Below, piece by piece: positions 9,375-16,076 of a stretch of 42,143 nt of DNA. Under the pieces are notes generated by a model. The model was not told where the DNA came from and ran no database searches. It worked only from the letters and a program-made list of their open reading frames with translations. The stretch is taken from the IMG/VR virus record IMGVR_UViG_3300038974_000891, positions 1-42,143 of that record; one strand, 5' to 3'. The first letter of the stretch is position 1, and each line of letters starts with the position of its first letter. A program made the position numbers and the translations under genes. The stretch comes from a virus. Lineage: Duplodnaviria; Caudoviricetes.

Positions 9375-9671
9375 CTAGCAAGCTACCGGAGCAAAAGCCG
9401 TAATATAAATGTTGTTTGCTTCAAGTTTTTCTTCAGCGGCACGAATATCACAGATATTTTGCATATTAAGCCAAAATTCCGCTGTTGTACCGAAATAACG
9501 CGATAAACGTACGGCAATATCGGCGGTTAATGCTGTCTTACCCCTTACAATCTTACTTACCAACGTTTGCGAAACACCGATATCTCGGGCAAGTTTATAT
9601 TGTGAAACCCCCAAAGGCTCCAAAAACTCCTCTTTCAAAATTTCCCCAACCTTTATTTTAATGTTGTCCAT
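9375..9671 (-). CDS. higA: HigA-family antitoxin
   Basis: GEILKEEFLEPLGVSQYKLA...LSRYFGTTAEFWLNMQ; RBS AAGGAGG before ATG 9671. Confidence 0.92.
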   Translation of the reverse strand: MDNIKIKVGEILKEEFLEPLGVSQYKLARDIGVSQTLVSKIVRGKTALTADIAVRLSRYFGTTAEFWLNMQNICDIRAAEEKLEANNIYITAFAPVAC

Positions 9672-9681
9672 TCTAACCTCC

Positions 9682-9960
9682 TTAATGATAATCCACAAAT
9701 TCAATCTGACTTGCCCTATTGTCGTTCCACTCAAAACAAATTCTGTATTTATCATTTACTCTGACAGAATACTGCCCTTTACGGTCGCCTTGTAACTTTT
9801 CCAAATGGTTTGAGGGTGGAACTCGCAAATCTTTTAAATCAGAGGCAGCCATAACCATTGTAATTTTCATCATTGCCTTACGAACAATATCTGGACTTAT
9901 CCCCTTTAATTTATGTCCTTTAGCTATATCCTCTGTCAATTCGTTTTTGAATCTGCTCAT
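9682..9960 (-). CDS. higB: HigB/RelE-family toxin
   Basis: DLRVPPSNHLEKLQGDRKGQYSVRVNDKYRICFEW...IEFVDYH; toxin-first order. Confidence 0.92.
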   Translation of the reverse strand: MSRFKNELTEDIAKGHKLKGISPDIVRKAMMKITMVMAASDLKDLRVPPSNHLEKLQGDRKGQYSVRVNDKYRICFEWNDNRASQIEFVDYH

Positions 9961-10562: not shown

Positions 10563-13091
10563 CTATACCTCCGGTTCAGGAGTATAAACTTCAGTTACAG
10601 GCAATGGTTTCAATGTAAGCATATAGGCTTTATCCCCACGGCGGGTTGTAGCCTTTCTAACCCCTAAGGAATAAAGAAACCGCCCGAATTTATTTGCCGA
10701 AGGTATATATTGTTTATGTTCAAAACAGTATTCCTTAAACGCATCATAAACATCAGCACAGGCAGTAACAGCTTCCTCATCAAATTTCAATCTCTCTTTG
10801 GTGAAGTCATACATACATTGCGGAAAAGGAGAAAGTTGAGGTGCCAACAAAATCTCCGTGGCTTTTTTACTTGCCATCAGCTCCGCCGCCACCTGCTTCG
10901 CCAACCCGGACATATTAACAAAGTGTACAGTCTGTTTTACCGGCTCAGGTTTTGGCTGCGGTTTTGATTTTAACCACGACACCGATTCTCTACGCAGTTT
11001 CGCGTTTTCCAAAATTAACTCTTTCCGCTGACCTCCCCACTCTTCCCTCTGTTTTTTTAAGTTGTCATTTTCCCAAATTAATTTGGCATTTTCCGCCCTT
11101 AAATCGTTTTTCTCTCTGGTAAGGCTTTTGAACATTTCCACTCTGTCTTTGTTGCGGGTTACGCTCCAATTCCATAATGTCCGGATTAAATCAGCGTCCG
11201 ATACTTCACCGGCATTAGCAGCATCACTTTGTTCCGCCGACTCTAAAATATCCGTAACGGCGTCCTTAATAGCGGCCACACATTGTGCCTTGACCATTTT
11301 ACAGATTTCACCGGGTGTAGCGTAATAACCCTGCCGTCTGATTGCCGGCAACACTTCCGACGTTACGAACTTCTTAAATGCCTTGGCTTCAGGCTTGCGG
11401 CTGCGAAGAATTAACGAATATAAACCACTCTCGTTGATTATGGTCAAATCTTGATTGCCAGAGGGGGTACTCACAATATGAGTACCCTTTTCATCATCGT
11501 CAAGGATACGAACAGCATTGCCGGCATCCCTATATTCCAACGCTGTTGCCACATCTGCAGCAACAAACCAAGGTTTATCATCAATTATAGTTGTTCTAAT
11601 CTCAGTTGATTTAAATGTATATGATATAAGCTCTTTCATTTTATCTATGCTTTCAGTAAAGCCGCTTGAGATTGAGCAAGCGGGGGACTCAACTGAAGTG
11701 CATAGACCTCGAGCCTTATTCAATGTATTCGGCTTCTCGTCCCCCCATAATTTGGGTATAAAAAAATCCGCAAGAACTTTCGGGGCGGTAAATCCGCTAT
11801 GCAAATCAGTACTTGCAGAATAACTTAACAGATTAAGGGTTGTCAACATATTTTTTGCTTTCCGGATTTCCAGCTCGTCAACAACGGCTTTCATATCTAC
11901 GGTAGGGGCAGGGTTTTGTTCCCTTAATGCCTTTTCCATTGTGTTAAAAGCGTTAATATATTTTATCTTCCACTCCATTGCTTTTTTGCCGATGAAACCC
12001 ATTGCCAGCAAAGTGAAACCATCACGAGTAATTTCATACATCGGGTAATCACGTGTCCCAGCGTGATAAGAGGATAACGCAAAATTGCGTTTTCCAAAAT
12101 CCTCGGGCAAATCAAGTTGTTGAACAGCACGCATCACATCACAGTGCTTTTTCCCGAAAACCACCGCAATCATTGTTGTATCAGTTATAACTTGATTGTT
12201 TAAAATCTTTACTAAAGCATTCATTTTGTATACCTTTCTTAGAATGCCCGTTGAAATTGAGCAGCGGGCGGACTCACTAAAAGCCGTATACAAAAGCTTT
12301 GACCGATATTCAATATATTTTCGGTTCTCATCCAGCCCGTAAGGATATACAAAAAAATCGCAAAACTGACGGGTGCGGAAGCCGTGTATACAAGTTTTTA
12401 GGCTTCCAGAATAACCCTTTTGAAAGGCAAAAGTCAACATATTTTTTGCTTTCCGGATTTCCAGCTCGTCAACAACGGCTTTCGTATCTACGGTAGGGGC
12501 AGGGTTTTGTTCCCTTAATGCCTTTTCCATTGTGTTAAAAGCGTTAATATATTTTATCTTCCACTCCATTGCTTTTTTGCCGATGAAACCCATTGCCAGC
12601 AAAGTGAAACCATCACGAGTAATTTCATACATCGGGTAATCACGTGTCCCAGCGTGATAAGAGGATAACGCAAAATTGCGTTTTCCAAAATCCTCGGGCA
12701 AATCAAGTTGTTGAACAGCACGCATCACATCACAGTGCTTTTTCCCGAAAACCACCGCAATCATTGTTGTATCAGTTATAACTTGATTGTTTAAAATCTT
12801 TACTAAAGCATTCATTTTGTATACCTTTCTTAGAATGCCCGCTGATACTGAGCAGTGGGCGGACTCACTAAAAGCAGCTAATAAATGCTTTGGCTGATAT
12901 TGATTATTTTCAGCTCTCATCCGCCCGTAAAACACGGATATAAAAAATACACGCTGACGGGGTGCGGAAGCCGTATTAGCTGTTTTTAGGCTTCCAGAAT
13001 AACCCTTTTGAAAGGCAAAAGTCAACATATTTTTCATATCTTCACCCCGCTGTACCCGTAACTTCTTTAAACGGCGGCTACGTAACACCAT
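10563..13091 (-). CDS. Ash-Rha-Ash-Rha-Ash-BroN antirepressor polyprotein frame; probable internal starts at 12815 (Rha), 12224 (Rha) and 11639 (Bro-N)
   Basis: Two near-identical Rha domains (IAVVFGKKHCDVMRA...YEITRDGFTLLAMGF...KYINAFN); Bro-N (PWFVAADV...INESGLYSLILRSRKPEAKAFKKFVTSEVLPAIR); coiled coil; C-terminal winged helix. Confidence 0.85.
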   Translation of the reverse strand: MVLRSRRLKKLRVQRGEDMKNMLTFAFQKGYSGSLKTANTASAPRQRVFFISVFYGRMRAENNQYQPKHLLAAFSESAHCSVSAGILRKVYKMNALVKILNNQVITDTTMIAVVFGKKHCDVMRAVQQLDLPEDFGKRNFALSSYHAGTRDYPMYEITRDGFTLLAMGFIGKKAMEWKIKYINAFNTMEKALREQNPAPTVDTKAVVDELEIRKAKNMLTFAFQKGYSGSLKTCIHGFRTRQFCDFFVYPYGLDENRKYIEYRSKLLYTAFSESARCSISTGILRKVYKMNALVKILNNQVITDTTMIAVVFGKKHCDVMRAVQQLDLPEDFGKRNFALSSYHAGTRDYPMYEITRDGFTLLAMGFIGKKAMEWKIKYINAFNTMEKALREQNPAPTVDMKAVVDELEIRKAKNMLTTLNLLSYSASTDLHSGFTAPKVLADFFIPKLWGDEKPNTLNKARGLCTSVESPACSISSGFTESIDKMKELISYTFKSTEIRTTIIDDKPWFVAADVATALEYRDAGNAVRILDDDEKGTHIVSTPSGNQDLTIINESGLYSLILRSRKPEAKAFKKFVTSEVLPAIRRQGYYATPGEICKMVKAQCVAAIKDAVTDILESAEQSDAANAGEVSDADLIRTLWNWSVTRNKDRVEMFKSLTREKNDLRAENAKLIWENDNLKKQREEWGGQRKELILENAKLRRESVSWLKSKPQPKPEPVKQTVHFVNMSGLAKQVAAELMASKKATEILLAPQLSPFPQCMYDFTKERLKFDEEAVTACADVYDAFKEYCFEHKQYIPSANKFGRFLYSLGVRKATTRRGDKAYMLTLKPLPVTEVYTPEPEV
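11682..11745 (-). ncRNA. C4/CI-like antisense RNA, module 3
   Basis: Outer stem GGGGGAC/GTCCCCC; inner AGCC/GGCT; loop CTATGCACTTCAGT complementary to upstream ACTGATTTGCATAG and to ACTGAAAGCATAG at the bro start. Confidence 0.7.
12265..12339 (-). ncRNA. C4/CI-like antisense RNA, module 2
   Basis: Outer stem CGGGC(T)GGA/TCCGCCCG; inner ACCGA/TCGGT; loop TTGTATACGGCTTTTAG complementary to upstream CTAAAAACTTGTATACA and to CTAAGAAAGGTATACAA at rha starts. Confidence 0.7.
12857..12926 (-). ncRNA. C4/CI-like antisense RNA, module 1
   Basis: Outer stem GGGCGGA/TCCGCCC; inner GCTGA/TCAGC; loop TATTAGCTGCTTTTAG complementary (15/16) to upstream CTAAAAACAGCTAATA. Confidence 0.7.
12996..13025 (-). 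promoter_or_regulatory. Sigma70-type promoter TTGACT-N18-TATTCT (repeated near 12408-12437; TTGACA variant near 11817-11846)
   Basis: Same -35/-10 pair at the head of all three modules. Confidence 0.6.
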
Positions 13092-13146
13092 AATAAAACT
13101 TTACACATCATTCGTCGTATCATATACTTTTAATTGAGGTATATGT

Positions 13147-13701
13147 GTGATGTTGAATACTTTGGGTAAACTTTTATTTTTCTTGTCTGCAAATTCCCCT
13201 GTTTTTTTGATTTGGGGAGTTTTTCAGTTTGCCAACAATCCGAGCGTTTCTCTGTTTTTATTTGCTATATCTTTATTATCGTATGTAGGTATGTTTTGTC
13301 TTTTTGCTTCGGCAAAACAGCGACAATCTAAGGTTTTGTACAACTTACATATAAATAACAATGTTAATTCGCAAATGATGGAATATATGGTTTCATATAT
13401 TTTGCCTTTTGTTTCATTGAACAATATCAATTCCATTGAAACCTTTGTTGCTTTGTGTATTTATTATGCGGTTTTGTTCGGAATATATTTGAAAAGCGAC
13501 GTTTTCTATGTAAACCCGATATTAAACCTTGCCGGATATAGCATTTACAAGATTACATATACAGAAGAAAGCAAGAAAAAAACATCCTTTTTGCTGACAA
13601 AAATAAAAGAGTTCAATATACCTAACAGCGTAAGAATACACACCATAGAACGTAGTCTTTTTATTTATAATGAGGATAAGAATGCCATTACAAATCAATA
13701 A
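13147..13701 (+). CDS. kwaA: Kiwa anti-phage membrane protein KwaA
   Basis: Four TM segments; EYMVSYILPF and YVNPILNLAGYSIYK motifs; directly upstream of a KwaB-like gene. Confidence 0.78.
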   Translation: MMLNTLGKLLFFLSANSPVFLIWGVFQFANNPSVSLFLFAISLLSYVGMFCLFASAKQRQSKVLYNLHINNNVNSQMMEYMVSYILPFVSLNNINSIETFVALCIYYAVLFGIYLKSDVFYVNPILNLAGYSIYKITYTEESKKKTSFLLTKIKEFNIPNSVRIHTIERSLFIYNEDKNAITNQ

Positions 13702-14584
13702 TCTTAACACAGCAAGCTCTTTATCAATTTATTTATCTATTAACAACAAAATAAAAGCCATAAGTCTAAACAATAATACAATGATGGATTTATTAGACTT
13801 TTACAAAGAAAAGCTCAACTCGTATACAGGCAATCTTGTCCAATACAGCGACCGCTACGGCTATAAAAAAGAAAGAGAAGAGTTATATGTATATGAAAAT
13901 ATAGATAATCTGGCAAAAATAAAAGGATACATCAGCAATATTTCTAATAATAATCCTTTTAACATAAGCAGAGACAGGCTGGAGGATTTATCTTTTTATG
14001 TTGTAAAAATCGTATTAAACGAAAGCAACAATCTTTTAATTTTTAAAAAATATCAAACCATCAAGCGTTTTTACGGTACCAAGCCTCTATTTTTTCAGGA
14101 CACCACTTTTGTAGAACAAGATAGAACAAAATTTTTGCTCTTTGAAACTAACGGTATTGATTTTTTTGTATATGACAACAAAGCCTATATAGATAGTACT
14201 TTCTTTTTTCAAGCTATAACCAACGAAAATGCGACTGATTTTTCGAAAGCAAGAGAGGTTATAACAAATTTAAATGACATTATTCCGATTGAAAATATTG
14301 ATGCCTTAGTTGCCGATATGGAAAGCAACAATAAAGTAAAAAGGGCTCTATTAAACATATCAAACAATCTTGATGTTATATCTAACATCACAATAGATAG
14401 TGTTCGTAATGTAATTAACGAATTGGGGCTTAATGTTGAGATTTCCGCAGATAACAAGATTATATATGACAGCAAATACAGAGATGAAATTTTGGATATT
14501 TTCCAAGATAATTACTTAACCTCTCAGACGACGCAATCTGATTACAGAACAAACAGCAAAATAAAGATTACTACTTCACCTTAG
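13682..14584 (+). CDS. kwaB: Kiwa anti-phage protein KwaB (DUF4868-like)
   Basis: About 300 aa; LLIFKKY, IDFF, LDIFQDNYLTSQTTQSDYRTNSK C-terminus; very AT-rich; overlaps kwaA. Confidence 0.78.
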   Translation: MPLQINNLNTASSLSIYLSINNKIKAISLNNNTMMDLLDFYKEKLNSYTGNLVQYSDRYGYKKEREELYVYENIDNLAKIKGYISNISNNNPFNISRDRLEDLSFYVVKIVLNESNNLLIFKKYQTIKRFYGTKPLFFQDTTFVEQDRTKFLLFETNGIDFFVYDNKAYIDSTFFFQAITNENATDFSKAREVITNLNDIIPIENIDALVADMESNNKVKRALLNISNNLDVISNITIDSVRNVINELGLNVEISADNKIIYDSKYRDEILDIFQDNYLTSQTTQSDYRTNSKIKITTSP

Positions 14585-15059: not shown

Positions 15060-15632
15060 TTACTTAACCTGTTTTAGCCAAGCGTTATAATCATCCAGCG
15101 ACATCATAACAACCGAAGACTTACCGTTGTGAGTGATTATTTTAGCCCTGCCTTTTACGGTTACTTCGTCCATCAGCTCCGCCATATTCTGCCTAGCTGC
15201 AGTATAAGTTATTGTATCCATCTTGCCTTCCTTTCGCCTTTCTTCATCGGGATTGTCTTTTACTTCCACAAAGGTACAATCGTAACCTTCTCTTAACAAC
15301 TTAAGATAAGCCAATCTTACGGCAGAAAGATAAACACTGTAAGGATATTCATAAAGAGTTGATTTTCTTTTATATTCATTCTCACTATATACCTTTATAT
15401 GTCCACATTGCTCGGACGCTGCTTTAGCTATCACCTTTACTTCATAATCCATACAAGAATAACAACCGCAAAGGTATTTCAAGGCTTTTTCATTTATATT
15501 CAGGCCATGCTCCCAATTTTGAACCGTACGCAAAGTAACCCCTTGAGCTGAAGCAAATTCCTCTTGCGTCAAGCCACATATCCACCTAAAAAGTCTAAAC
15601 TTGGTAGCCACATTAAAATTTTTGTCATTCAT
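15060..15632 (-). CDS. XRE-type HTH protein fused to a short Phd/YefM antitoxin domain (internal start 15221)
   Basis: GLTQEEFASAQGVTLRTVQNWEHG; C-terminus MDTITYTAARQNMAELMDEV...IITHNGKSSVVMMSLDDYN. Confidence 0.75.
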   Translation of the reverse strand: MNDKNFNVATKFRLFRWICGLTQEEFASAQGVTLRTVQNWEHGLNINEKALKYLCGCYSCMDYEVKVIAKAASEQCGHIKVYSENEYKRKSTLYEYPYSVYLSAVRLAYLKLLREGYDCTFVEVKDNPDEERRKEGKMDTITYTAARQNMAELMDEVTVKGRAKIITHNGKSSVVMMSLDDYNAWLKQVK

Positions 15633-16076
15633 TTTTAATCTCCACAATCAAAAAAAATCACCTGAAGATAGGTTAGCATTTCCATATTTTTCAAATCAAG
15701 TGATTTTTTTTTATAAAATACGAAAATTCGTAAAAAAAGAAAAAAACCGCGAATTTATAGAACTTAAAGGTAATAAATAGAATTTCCGTATTCAATTCTT
15801 TTTATAAGAATTTATAGAACAAACGGAATAAATAGCTTATTTTTTGTCTATTGGACAAAAAAGTTAATTTTTTGTTAACAAACTGTCTTTATTTTTTATT
15901 TATTTTTCAATTACTTGACTTTTTTATACTAAGTTTACTATTTCAGGGGCTTTTTTGTATTATTCCTTATAATATTATATATATAATATACATAACGTAT
16001 TATATATAAACGCGTACAATCAAAAAAAAGCAAAAATGTTAGAATTTTGGTACAATCAGACAAACAGTATATTTTA

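Follow-up and report, generated by a model that had tools for sequence, protein, structure and literature searches.

The 42,143-nucleotide stretch of viral DNA analysed here (Caudoviricetes; IMG/VR record IMGVR_UViG_3300038974_000891; hereafter the window) represents a temperate, gut-type prophage that encodes a CI-like repressor and an integrase. One of its loci raises the question of whether several antisense RNA immunity switches can be stacked in front of successive antirepressor-type domains, and whether each then acts as a lock of its own. The initial annotation had described a tandem array of three minus-strand units, and promoters, RNAs, targets and domains were located in each. The three successive units lie in one frame of 842 codons (13091-10563), and an antirepressor-type domain follows every unit, in the order Rha, Rha, Bro-N. 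Within each unit the order is promoter, leader target, terminator-like hairpin, a three-helix RNA of 64-73 nt, and a target over the start codon. The frame, its domains and the elements that open each unit are as follows:

10563..13091, minus strand: open frame of 842 aa spanning all three cassettes (reading-frame analysis)
12522..12776, minus strand: Rha domain 1 (PF09669; domain match)
11931..12185, minus strand: Rha domain 2 (PF09669), within a 409-bp block duplicated at 12433-12841
11346..11603, minus strand: Bro-N domain (PF02498; domain match)
10620..10772, minus strand: C-terminal stretch similar (41% over 51 aa) to the final part of the D5-type primase encoded by this phage
12996..13025, minus strand: predicted sigma70-like promoter of unit 1; an in-frame ATG overlaps its -35 box
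12408..12437, minus strand: predicted promoter of unit 2, in a 53-bp block identical to unit 1
11817..11846, minus strand: predicted promoter of unit 3
12942..12965, minus strand: predicted weak terminator-like hairpin and T-run of unit 1
12352..12377, minus strand: predicted terminator-like hairpin and T-run of unit 2
11761..11788, minus strand: predicted terminator-like hairpin and T-run of unit 3

The TTGAC-N-TATTCT promoter expected in each unit is present with a spacer of 18 nt, and opens the units at 13025-12996, 12437-12408 and 11846-11817. Promoter-class matches were not above chance in number (13 found against a shuffled mean of 9.5, sd 2.8), and the weight of the promoter evidence lies in the fixed position in every unit, not in the match count. 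The terminator-like hairpins of the window are weak (-2.2 to -4.9 kcal/mol), and a terminator scan of the window did not have the leader hairpins among its predictions. Blocking the leader target raised the mean modelled terminator probability from 0.31 to 0.78 (up in 23 of 29 cases, down in 1 of 29), a rise that blocking any competing 5' sequence would also produce. An antiterminator formed from the promoter-spacer in read-through transcripts was considered and set aside: the native sequence ranked under the shuffles' 10th percentile in 12 of 29 cases, a hint only, and all three window units were unremarkable or borderline against shuffles.

Three-stem RNAs of 65-75 nt had been proposed, and cores of 70, 73 and 64 nt were delimited:

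12857..12926, minus strand: RNA 1, 70-nt three-helix core, guide loop at 12883-12875
12266..12338, minus strand: RNA 2, 73-nt three-helix core, guide around 12295-12286
11682..11745, minus strand: RNA 3, 64-nt three-helix core, guide loop at 11705-11699
12837..12860, minus strand: hairpin downstream of RNA 1 with a conserved CTCA loop, the likely crossover zone of a recombinant unit 1

Covariation was assessed on 31 cassettes picked by scaffold filters blind to complementarity. Of the 40 viral and 69 genome pattern matches, most did not pass the scaffold filter and were regarded as chance hits; one cassette that also did not pass (L079) was added by hand. When the RNAalifold consensus structure was scored, 96.2% of 586 helix cells were paired and 14 of 19 pairs carried compensatory changes, which are also found in the closed outer helix; the covariation score was 0.632, compared with 0.206 for shuffles and no more than 0.115 with the partners slid. 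The stems quoted in the initial annotation as covarying are present, and the larger alignment upholds that claim. Single-sequence folding of cores 1, 2 and 3 was modestly better than shuffles (z of -3.3, -1.2 and -2.3), so the structural case rests on covariation, which backs a three-way-junction RNA as in the c4/CI class.

The sole part of the RNA that varies is a loop of 6-9 nt; the loop sequences first quoted had taken in the 3' stem arm and the linker. Candidate targets lie on both sides of each RNA:

12974..12989, minus strand: unit 1 leader target (b1 and a1), complementary to guide 1
12385..12401, minus strand: unit 2 leader target, complementary to guide 2
11797..11810, minus strand: unit 3 leader target (b1 and a1), complementary to guide 3
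12813..12833, minus strand: start-codon target before Rha copy 1, which fits guide 2 and not guide 1
12222..12242, minus strand: start-codon site ahead of Rha copy 2, which fits the unit's own guide 2
11637..11657, minus strand: start-codon site ahead of Bro-N, which fits the unit's own guide 3

The predicted complementarity of each loop to its own upstream target was confirmed over 9, 7 and 7 contiguous bases in units 1-3, compared with 3-6 for the other guides of the window. Across the 31 cassettes, with mis-parsed loops in L079, L081, L090 and L124 retained, the longest guide-target run averaged 7.0 upstream and 7.1 downstream against 4.2 for non-cognate pairs, and none of 100,000 permutations reached the observed match. 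Loop and leader target covary, both in all three window units and in the 31-cassette set. In run X6 the same two-base change occurs in both unit 3 targets and gives the pair seen with a matching guide in cassette L139; the contigs concerned, of depth 2.5 and 4.0, cover the targets but not the loop letters, and the change is likely to be a switch of specificity.

A downstream target at a start codon had been claimed for every unit; it is cognate in units 2 and 3 but not in unit 1. The unit 1 site is identical to that of unit 2 and pairs over 10 bases with guide 2 and over 5 with guide 1, and 23 of the 30 other cassettes' sites pair with guide 1 as well as it does. Both RNA 1 and the unit 1 leader target are intact, and a contig of pig run X5 joins RNA 1 to a guide-1 start-codon target. 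Unit 1 is cross-wired, whereas the guide-1 target is retained in a relative from the pig gut; this pattern suggests recombination within the scaffold, and on sequence comparison unit 1 is a recombinant. With its start-codon site under guide 2, the units are not three independent locks. The earlier idea that several specificities are stacked holds in part. Stacks do recur, with two or three units in frame, in relatives L007, G002, P0002 and P0004. Among the Bro-N-based loci L007-L069, scanned with a model built here on the subfamily (R1), cassettes were found in L007 only.

The units have the anatomy of a c4/CI-type switch, but the membership implied by the label C4-like was not borne out. The proposed search with the Rfam C4 model (RF01695) gave no match in the window at the gathering score, and none when 11400-13200 was searched at E up to 10 or when the family was searched singly. 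An Rfam search of 11400-13200 at E up to 10 returned three matches, all at chance level; the window RNAs did not match the sRNA-Xcc1 model (RF02221), and the single isrK hit to the leaders was at chance level. Cassette L100 of the subfamily does pass RF02221 (54.2 bits, cut-off 53), and R1 recovers 0 of 30 canonical RF02221 loci. Because the window RNAs match neither model and R1 recovers none of these loci, the link to sRNA-Xcc1 rests on bridging members such as L100, through which the array RNAs are joined, by sequence, to that family as a short subfamily. They may also overlap the c4-2 motif (Weinberg 2017) or another motif unlisted in Rfam.

The scaffold of the array differs from C4 in its UGAG/UGAG inner helix, AAUA..AAUA second helix and CTCA hairpin. 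It shares with sRNA-Xcc1 a three-helix layout and the AAUA motifs of the second helix, but the apical hairpin that sRNA-Xcc1 has in that helix is absent from the window RNAs. Among the 31 cassettes the three helices and both AAUA motifs are conserved, and the apical hairpin is present only in L100 and L148. Thirty RF02221 members found with the Rfam model were all parsed (30/30; one genome was left unscored). Their loops match upstream sequence at 6.97 against 4.09, with 26 of 30 at 6 or more, and their linkers at 5.5 against 3.86 (n = 30); a downstream loop match of at least 6 was seen in only 7 of 30. The layout of the array units recurs in these members: a leader target and a terminator hairpin and, in many cases, a target at the start codon.

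The initial annotation had overlooked that a single open frame, 13091-10563, runs through the entire array. It reads as cassette peptide, Rha, cassette peptide, Rha, cassette peptide, Bro-N and a long C-terminal part, with in-frame ATGs at 12815, 12224 and 11639. By domain families only, the two Rha domains and Bro-N are likely antirepressor domains, and PHROG anti-repressor and Rha-like matches were obtained for the sequence directly downstream of the RNAs. Of 31 cassettes, 14 leave this frame open, against 0 and 1 for the two alternative frames; this contrast overstates the signal because the conserved scaffold letters place stops in those frames and the cassettes are related. In 17 of 31 cassettes the frame is not open.

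The precedents for such a locus are single cassettes. P1 c4 has bipartite a/b targets on both sides of the RNA, and P4 has nested eta/kil translation. In the immI region of P1 and P7, c4 carries its guides in loops, the targets lie near the antirepressor ribosome-binding site, and specificity sets heteroimmunity (PMC12197685). The P4 CI RNA is processed and pairs with upstream and downstream sites (seqA and seqC), leading to termination (PMC4825925); c4 and CI RNAs are both described as processed and acting in trans (PMC12197685, PMC4825925). In the Gifsy-1 isrK-orf45-anrP locus, ribosomes on orf45 continue into anrP (PMC4825925). The array shares with P1/P7 c4 (about 70-80 nt) a compact structured RNA, loop guides and an antirepressor-type gene downstream; it differs in having three units stacked in one frame, in a temperate phage with a CI-like repressor and an integrase. 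P4 CI and Gifsy-1 are likewise single, whereas the cassettes here are repeated, in frame and cross-wired. Among the papers listed by literature searches, none described stacked in-frame cassettes and none combined sRNA-Xcc1, antisense, immunity and prophage.

It is probable that the stacked cassettes act as antisense locks of the P1-c4/P4-CI type, silencing the predicted antirepressor domains in the lysogen. Processing of the RNAs, repression and immunity are likely by the precedent of P1 c4 and P4 CI. Each unit would be transcribed from its own promoter and an RNA of about 70 nt cut out; the third-helix loop and the 3' linker would pair with the leader target and favour the terminator, and pairing with the Shine-Dalgarno/start region would block translation. 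An incoming phage would be silenced only where both share a guide code. New units would arise, and existing ones be exchanged, through recombination at conserved letters of promoter and scaffold; in this way RNA 1 may have been separated from its own gene, leaving Rha copy 1 with its leader under RNA 1 and its start codon under RNA 2. In an open frame of this kind, a ribosome starting at an upstream unit would be expected to pass through the downstream locks, as in Gifsy-1 orf45-anrP.

The 591 bp earlier given for the duplication is the repeat period; the blocks of identical sequence measure 409 bp (apart from one difference), 53 bp and 19 bp. The array might be an assembly artefact joining two strain variants, given that no contig among those listed spans the whole of it, that the depth evidence comes from contigs only, and that the best-matching run (X1) may itself be the source sample. 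A bubble of that kind predicts cassettes 1 and 2 at half depth, the repeat at single depth and no junction, but in X1 the unique cassettes stand at 8.8 and 9.2, the repeats at 15.5 and 18.7 and a 46-nt junction contig at 10.8, with flanks at 6.1-7.1. Repeat contigs at about twice the flank depth, together with the junction contig, show that the duplication is real and not a strain collapse; contigs of X2, X3 and X5 also join the upstream flank to cassette 1, which leaves an artefact very improbable. A stronger contender, of appreciable probability though well short of even, is that the switch works, with the third unit a recent and mostly neutral product of recombination, unit 1 a duplication scar and immunity no wider. 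The single difference between the Rha blocks, the misfit of unit 1's start-codon target to its own guide, the failure to find a second bipartite target of guide 1 elsewhere in the window, and the lack of coverage of the duplicated Rha block in pig runs X2, X3, X5 and X6 all favour this. It is opposed by the intact RNA 1 and leader target, by the stacks in relatives, and by X2 and X3, where an extra cassette contig lies behind the same junction and shared pieces are at raised depth.

If loop and targets paired within one transcript, the units would be cis-only leader attenuators that release no diffusible RNA, and no matched target is more than about 110 nt away from the RNA. The compensated, closed outer helix and the targets on both sides resemble trans-acting c4/CI, however, and transcripts are reported for all seven Xylella sRNA-Xcc1 homologues (PMC12189769); this reading is unlikely. 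Less likely still is that the RNAs regulate host genes in trans, like sRNA-Xcc1 and the Xylella sXF RNAs. That L100 passes the RF02221 cut-off speaks for it, and passages of PMC12189769 describe sRNA-Xcc1 as a virulence-related trans-acting sRNA with many predicted targets, not as an immunity switch. Against it, the sole variable part covaries with adjoining phage sequence in both the subfamily and RF02221 members, and most genes downstream of either code for small phage proteins, Bro-N and Rha among them.

The mechanism behind antisense locks has been known since P1 c4 and P4 CI. The window adds a compact guide-RNA scaffold of 64-73 nt, undetected by Rfam here, with many natural guide/target pairs, so that pairing rules are directly testable and orthogonal RNA switches are on offer. 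The module swap and the likely two-base change of specificity in near-identical phages suggest how antisense immunity groups could diversify. The findings also lend support to viewing sRNA-Xcc1 as an antirepressor lock of prophages, a point relevant to papers that class it as a virulence RNA; in Xylella fastidiosa Temecula1, five tandem sXF copies are spaced about 383 bp apart (PMC12189769). A broader proposal, tentative and less probable than not, is that such loci are expandable, reprogrammable RNA-guide arrays whose locks are wired by the frame. If so, each added guide would widen the set of relatives that a lysogen silences, escape at any upstream unit would deliver all downstream antirepressor domains, and the sRNA-Xcc1 family would, together with the five-copy array of Xylella, represent the same phage immunity device and not a set of virulence sRNAs.

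The window carries three successive units on the minus strand (about 13025 to 11637), as the initial annotation had claimed. Each opens with a promoter-like TTGAC-18-TATTCT site, followed by a leader target, a weak hairpin and T-run, and an RNA core of 64–73 nt; a second hairpin, with CTCA in its loop, precedes the ATG. Taken together, the promoter scan hits were no more numerous than expected by chance (13 vs 9.5 ± 2.8). A single 842-codon frame, absent from that annotation, spans the whole array (Rha, Rha, Bro-N). The following features belong to this frame:

13028-13021, minus strand: in-frame ATG overlapping the -35 box of promoter 1
12440-12433, minus strand: the same at promoter 2
11849-11842, minus strand: the same at promoter 3
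10620-10772, minus strand: end of the 842-aa protein, 41% identical over 51 aa to the final part of the D5-type primase that the phage encodes

The same ATG start was found in the related locus L007, genome G002 and database protein P0004. The primase-like end could be a captured DNA-binding domain.

Identical blocks measure 409 bp (apart from a single difference), 53 bp and 19 bp and recur with periods of 591 and 588. Were this a collapse of two alternative strains, each cassette would be expected at half depth and the junction would be absent. In sequencing run X1, the best match to the window and possibly its source sample, which was available as contigs with no single contig across the array, depth was 15.5 in the 409-nt repeat, 18.7 in the 53-nt repeat, 8.8 and 9.2 in cassettes 1 and 2, and 6.1–7.1 in the flanks. 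A 46-nt contig at depth 10.8 spanned the repeat-to-promoter junction. The raised repeat depth and the junction contig indicate that the duplication is genuine.

The RNAs had been described as C4-like, but the Rfam models gave no C4 match in the array: nothing in the window matched Rfam at the gathering threshold or when E was relaxed to 10, and the array was also negative when searched with the C4, sRNA-Xcc1 and isrK families one at a time. Searches by scaffold pattern hit 6 and 40 stretches in viruses and 69 in genomes, from which a filter on scaffold features alone retained 27 distinct cassettes outside the window. The alignment (n = 31) combined these with the three units of the window and with L079, which was included by hand. 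Pairing was observed in 96.2% of 586 cells, with compensatory change at 14 of 19 pairs. The covariation score was 0.632, compared with 0.206 after shuffling, a comparison inflated by kinship of the cassettes, and with at most 0.115 for slid partners, a control that retains kinship; the stem covariation first noted between the three units was thereby upheld over the 31 cassettes. One of 14 loci scanned, L100, scored above the sRNA-Xcc1 (RF02221) cut-off (54.2 vs 53 bits). An apical hairpin is kept in L100 and L148 and missing from the other 29 of 31. Our own model of the window RNA subfamily recovered none of 30 canonical RF02221 loci. From the Rfam null results, the bridging match of L100 and the failure of our model on RF02221, the window RNAs are classed, on sequence grounds, as a distinct short subfamily tied to sRNA-Xcc1 via intermediates.

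In the alignment, a near-invariant UGAG lies on both strands of the inner part of the outer helix, where tandem G-A pairs are possible, and the CTCA loop of the downstream hairpin is complementary to it. Two other RNAs were noted on contigs with related cassettes:

L179/L214, 5838-5918, minus strand: sRNA-Xcc1-like RNA (38.2 bits) just upstream of the L124 cassette promoter, with no clear leader target and two tRNA genes nearby
L102, 7760-7831, plus strand: Type II hammerhead ribozyme on a phage contig also bearing a cassette

Over the 31 cassettes, each guide loop was scored for its longest unbroken Watson-Crick match; the mean was 7.0 against its own upstream region and 7.1 against its own downstream region, compared with 4.2 for non-cognate pairs, four mis-parsed loops included; none of 100,000 permutations attained the observed upstream or downstream value. 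The covariation of each loop with its own upstream target was thus borne out. The same measure on 30 independent RF02221 loci, drawn from 150 sampled genomes of which 32 matched, gave 6.97 vs 4.09 for loop against upstream region (at least 6 in 26/30) and 5.5 vs 3.86 for the adjacent linker. Loops in this set were of 23 different sequences and linkers of 13; on the downstream side the loop matched less well (at least 6 in 7/30). The targets of c4 have a bipartite a/b design, and loop plus linker matching in RF02221 members follows the same design.

Downstream targets were present at the start codons, as proposed, but that of unit 1 fits guide 2 and not guide 1: the site is identical to that of unit 2, guide 2 can pair with 10 of its bases and guide 1 with only 5, and no further two-part guide 1 target was found anywhere in the window. 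In pig run X5, a single contig carries RNA 1 and, just past the hairpin, another gene with a guide 1-complementary start region; runs X2 and X3, from the same study, share a loose end past the RNA 1 hairpin. The simplest reading of these contigs is that unit 1 is a crossover product within the shared scaffold and hairpin. A 207-nt contig in X2 and X3 links the repeat end to a scaffold 3' end via a different middle, and is read as another cassette. In X6, from a second study, the same two-base change occurs in both unit 3 targets (depths 2.5 and 4.0), giving the target pair of L139, where the guide matches. The X6 change was read from the target letters; the contig alignment ends at 11703, adjoining the first loop base expected to change.

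By analogy with c4 (review PMC12197685) and CI/seqA/seqC (PMC4825925), each RNA would be excised from its transcript; pairing with the leader would favour termination, and pairing with the start region would block translation. With the leader target blocked, modelled terminator probability rose from a mean of 0.31 to 0.78 (higher in 23 of 29 cassettes, lower in 1), for weak hairpins and in a set-up that favours a rise; the folding models agree weakly with termination control by leader pairing. In many cassettes the modelled folding of transcripts that read through from upstream disfavours the terminator, but only 12/29 beat the tenth percentile of shuffles. A lysogen would make three guides, the leader of Rha copy 1 would answer to RNA 1 and its start to RNA 2, and a ribosome starting upstream would deliver all downstream domains.

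Stacking was also observed in relatives. L007 has two units within one frame; G002 has three units, with three guides on two types of scaffold, and a 505-codon frame runs through the first and second; and database proteins P0002 and P0004 each contain a pair of cassette peptides and a pair of Bro-N domains. In 14/31 cassettes the downstream gene's frame stays open when followed upstream across the cassette, compared with 0 and 1 for the other frames. Because 17 are closed, conserved scaffold letters force stops in the alternative frames and the cassettes share ancestry, the indication that cassettes are kept open in the antirepressor frame is suggestive only. Two contigs each bear a pair of distant cassettes with differing guides: L079 with L095, and L122 with L128, which lie at opposite ends and precede the same N-terminal sequence.

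Translating through a cassette into an antirepressor is not without precedent, one being nested-gene translation in P4. Another is Gifsy-1 orf45-anrP, as described in PMC4825925. PMC12189769 describes five tandem sRNA-Xcc1 homologues in Xylella, spaced by ~383 bp, transcribed and taken as virulence-related sRNAs, and an APSE preprint (10.1101/2020.03.17.996009) places c4, isrK and sRNA-Xcc1 next to genes for Bro-N, Rha and ORF6N (see also PMC5737381, PMC2864571 and PMC6906374). Among the papers covered by the search, none combined sRNA-Xcc1 with antisense, immunity and prophage. New here are the short scaffold subfamily that Rfam misses in the window, the in-frame stacking of units, and evidence of swapped modules that comes directly from comparing relatives.

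The record is a 42-kb provirus that encodes an integrase, a CI-like repressor and a D5-type primase, together with genes for head and tail. Its host is probably a gut alphaproteobacterium, because the provirus terminase is 81% identical to one in genome G003 and 8/12 genome-derived cassettes, that of G003 among them, come from Alphaproteobacteria records. At least half of the region's sampled words were present in each of six runs (one bioreactor, five pig samples; three studies). Around the array lie:

13147-14584, plus strand: two-gene unit, the second gene KwaB-like (Kiwa defence system), directly adjoining the array and divergent
15060-15647, minus strand: 195-aa frame, N-terminal part HTH-like, C-terminal Phd/YefM antitoxin domain
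9375-9960, minus strand: HigB-like toxin with an HTH antitoxin, encoded on the strand of the array and downstream of it
13064/13065: divergence point in pig runs X2, X3 and X5 (one side only in X6 and X7), ~40 bp upstream of promoter 1 and within the 5' end of the long frame; relatives may have an insertion or a replaced segment at this point

The initial annotation was thus partly confirmed in what it observed and partly supported in its interpretation: the type of switch holds by analogy, and membership of the C4 family does not. The switch logic resembles that of C4, whereas the window RNAs lie outside that family. The array probably works as a known antisense immunity switch does, and it may plausibly broaden immunity.
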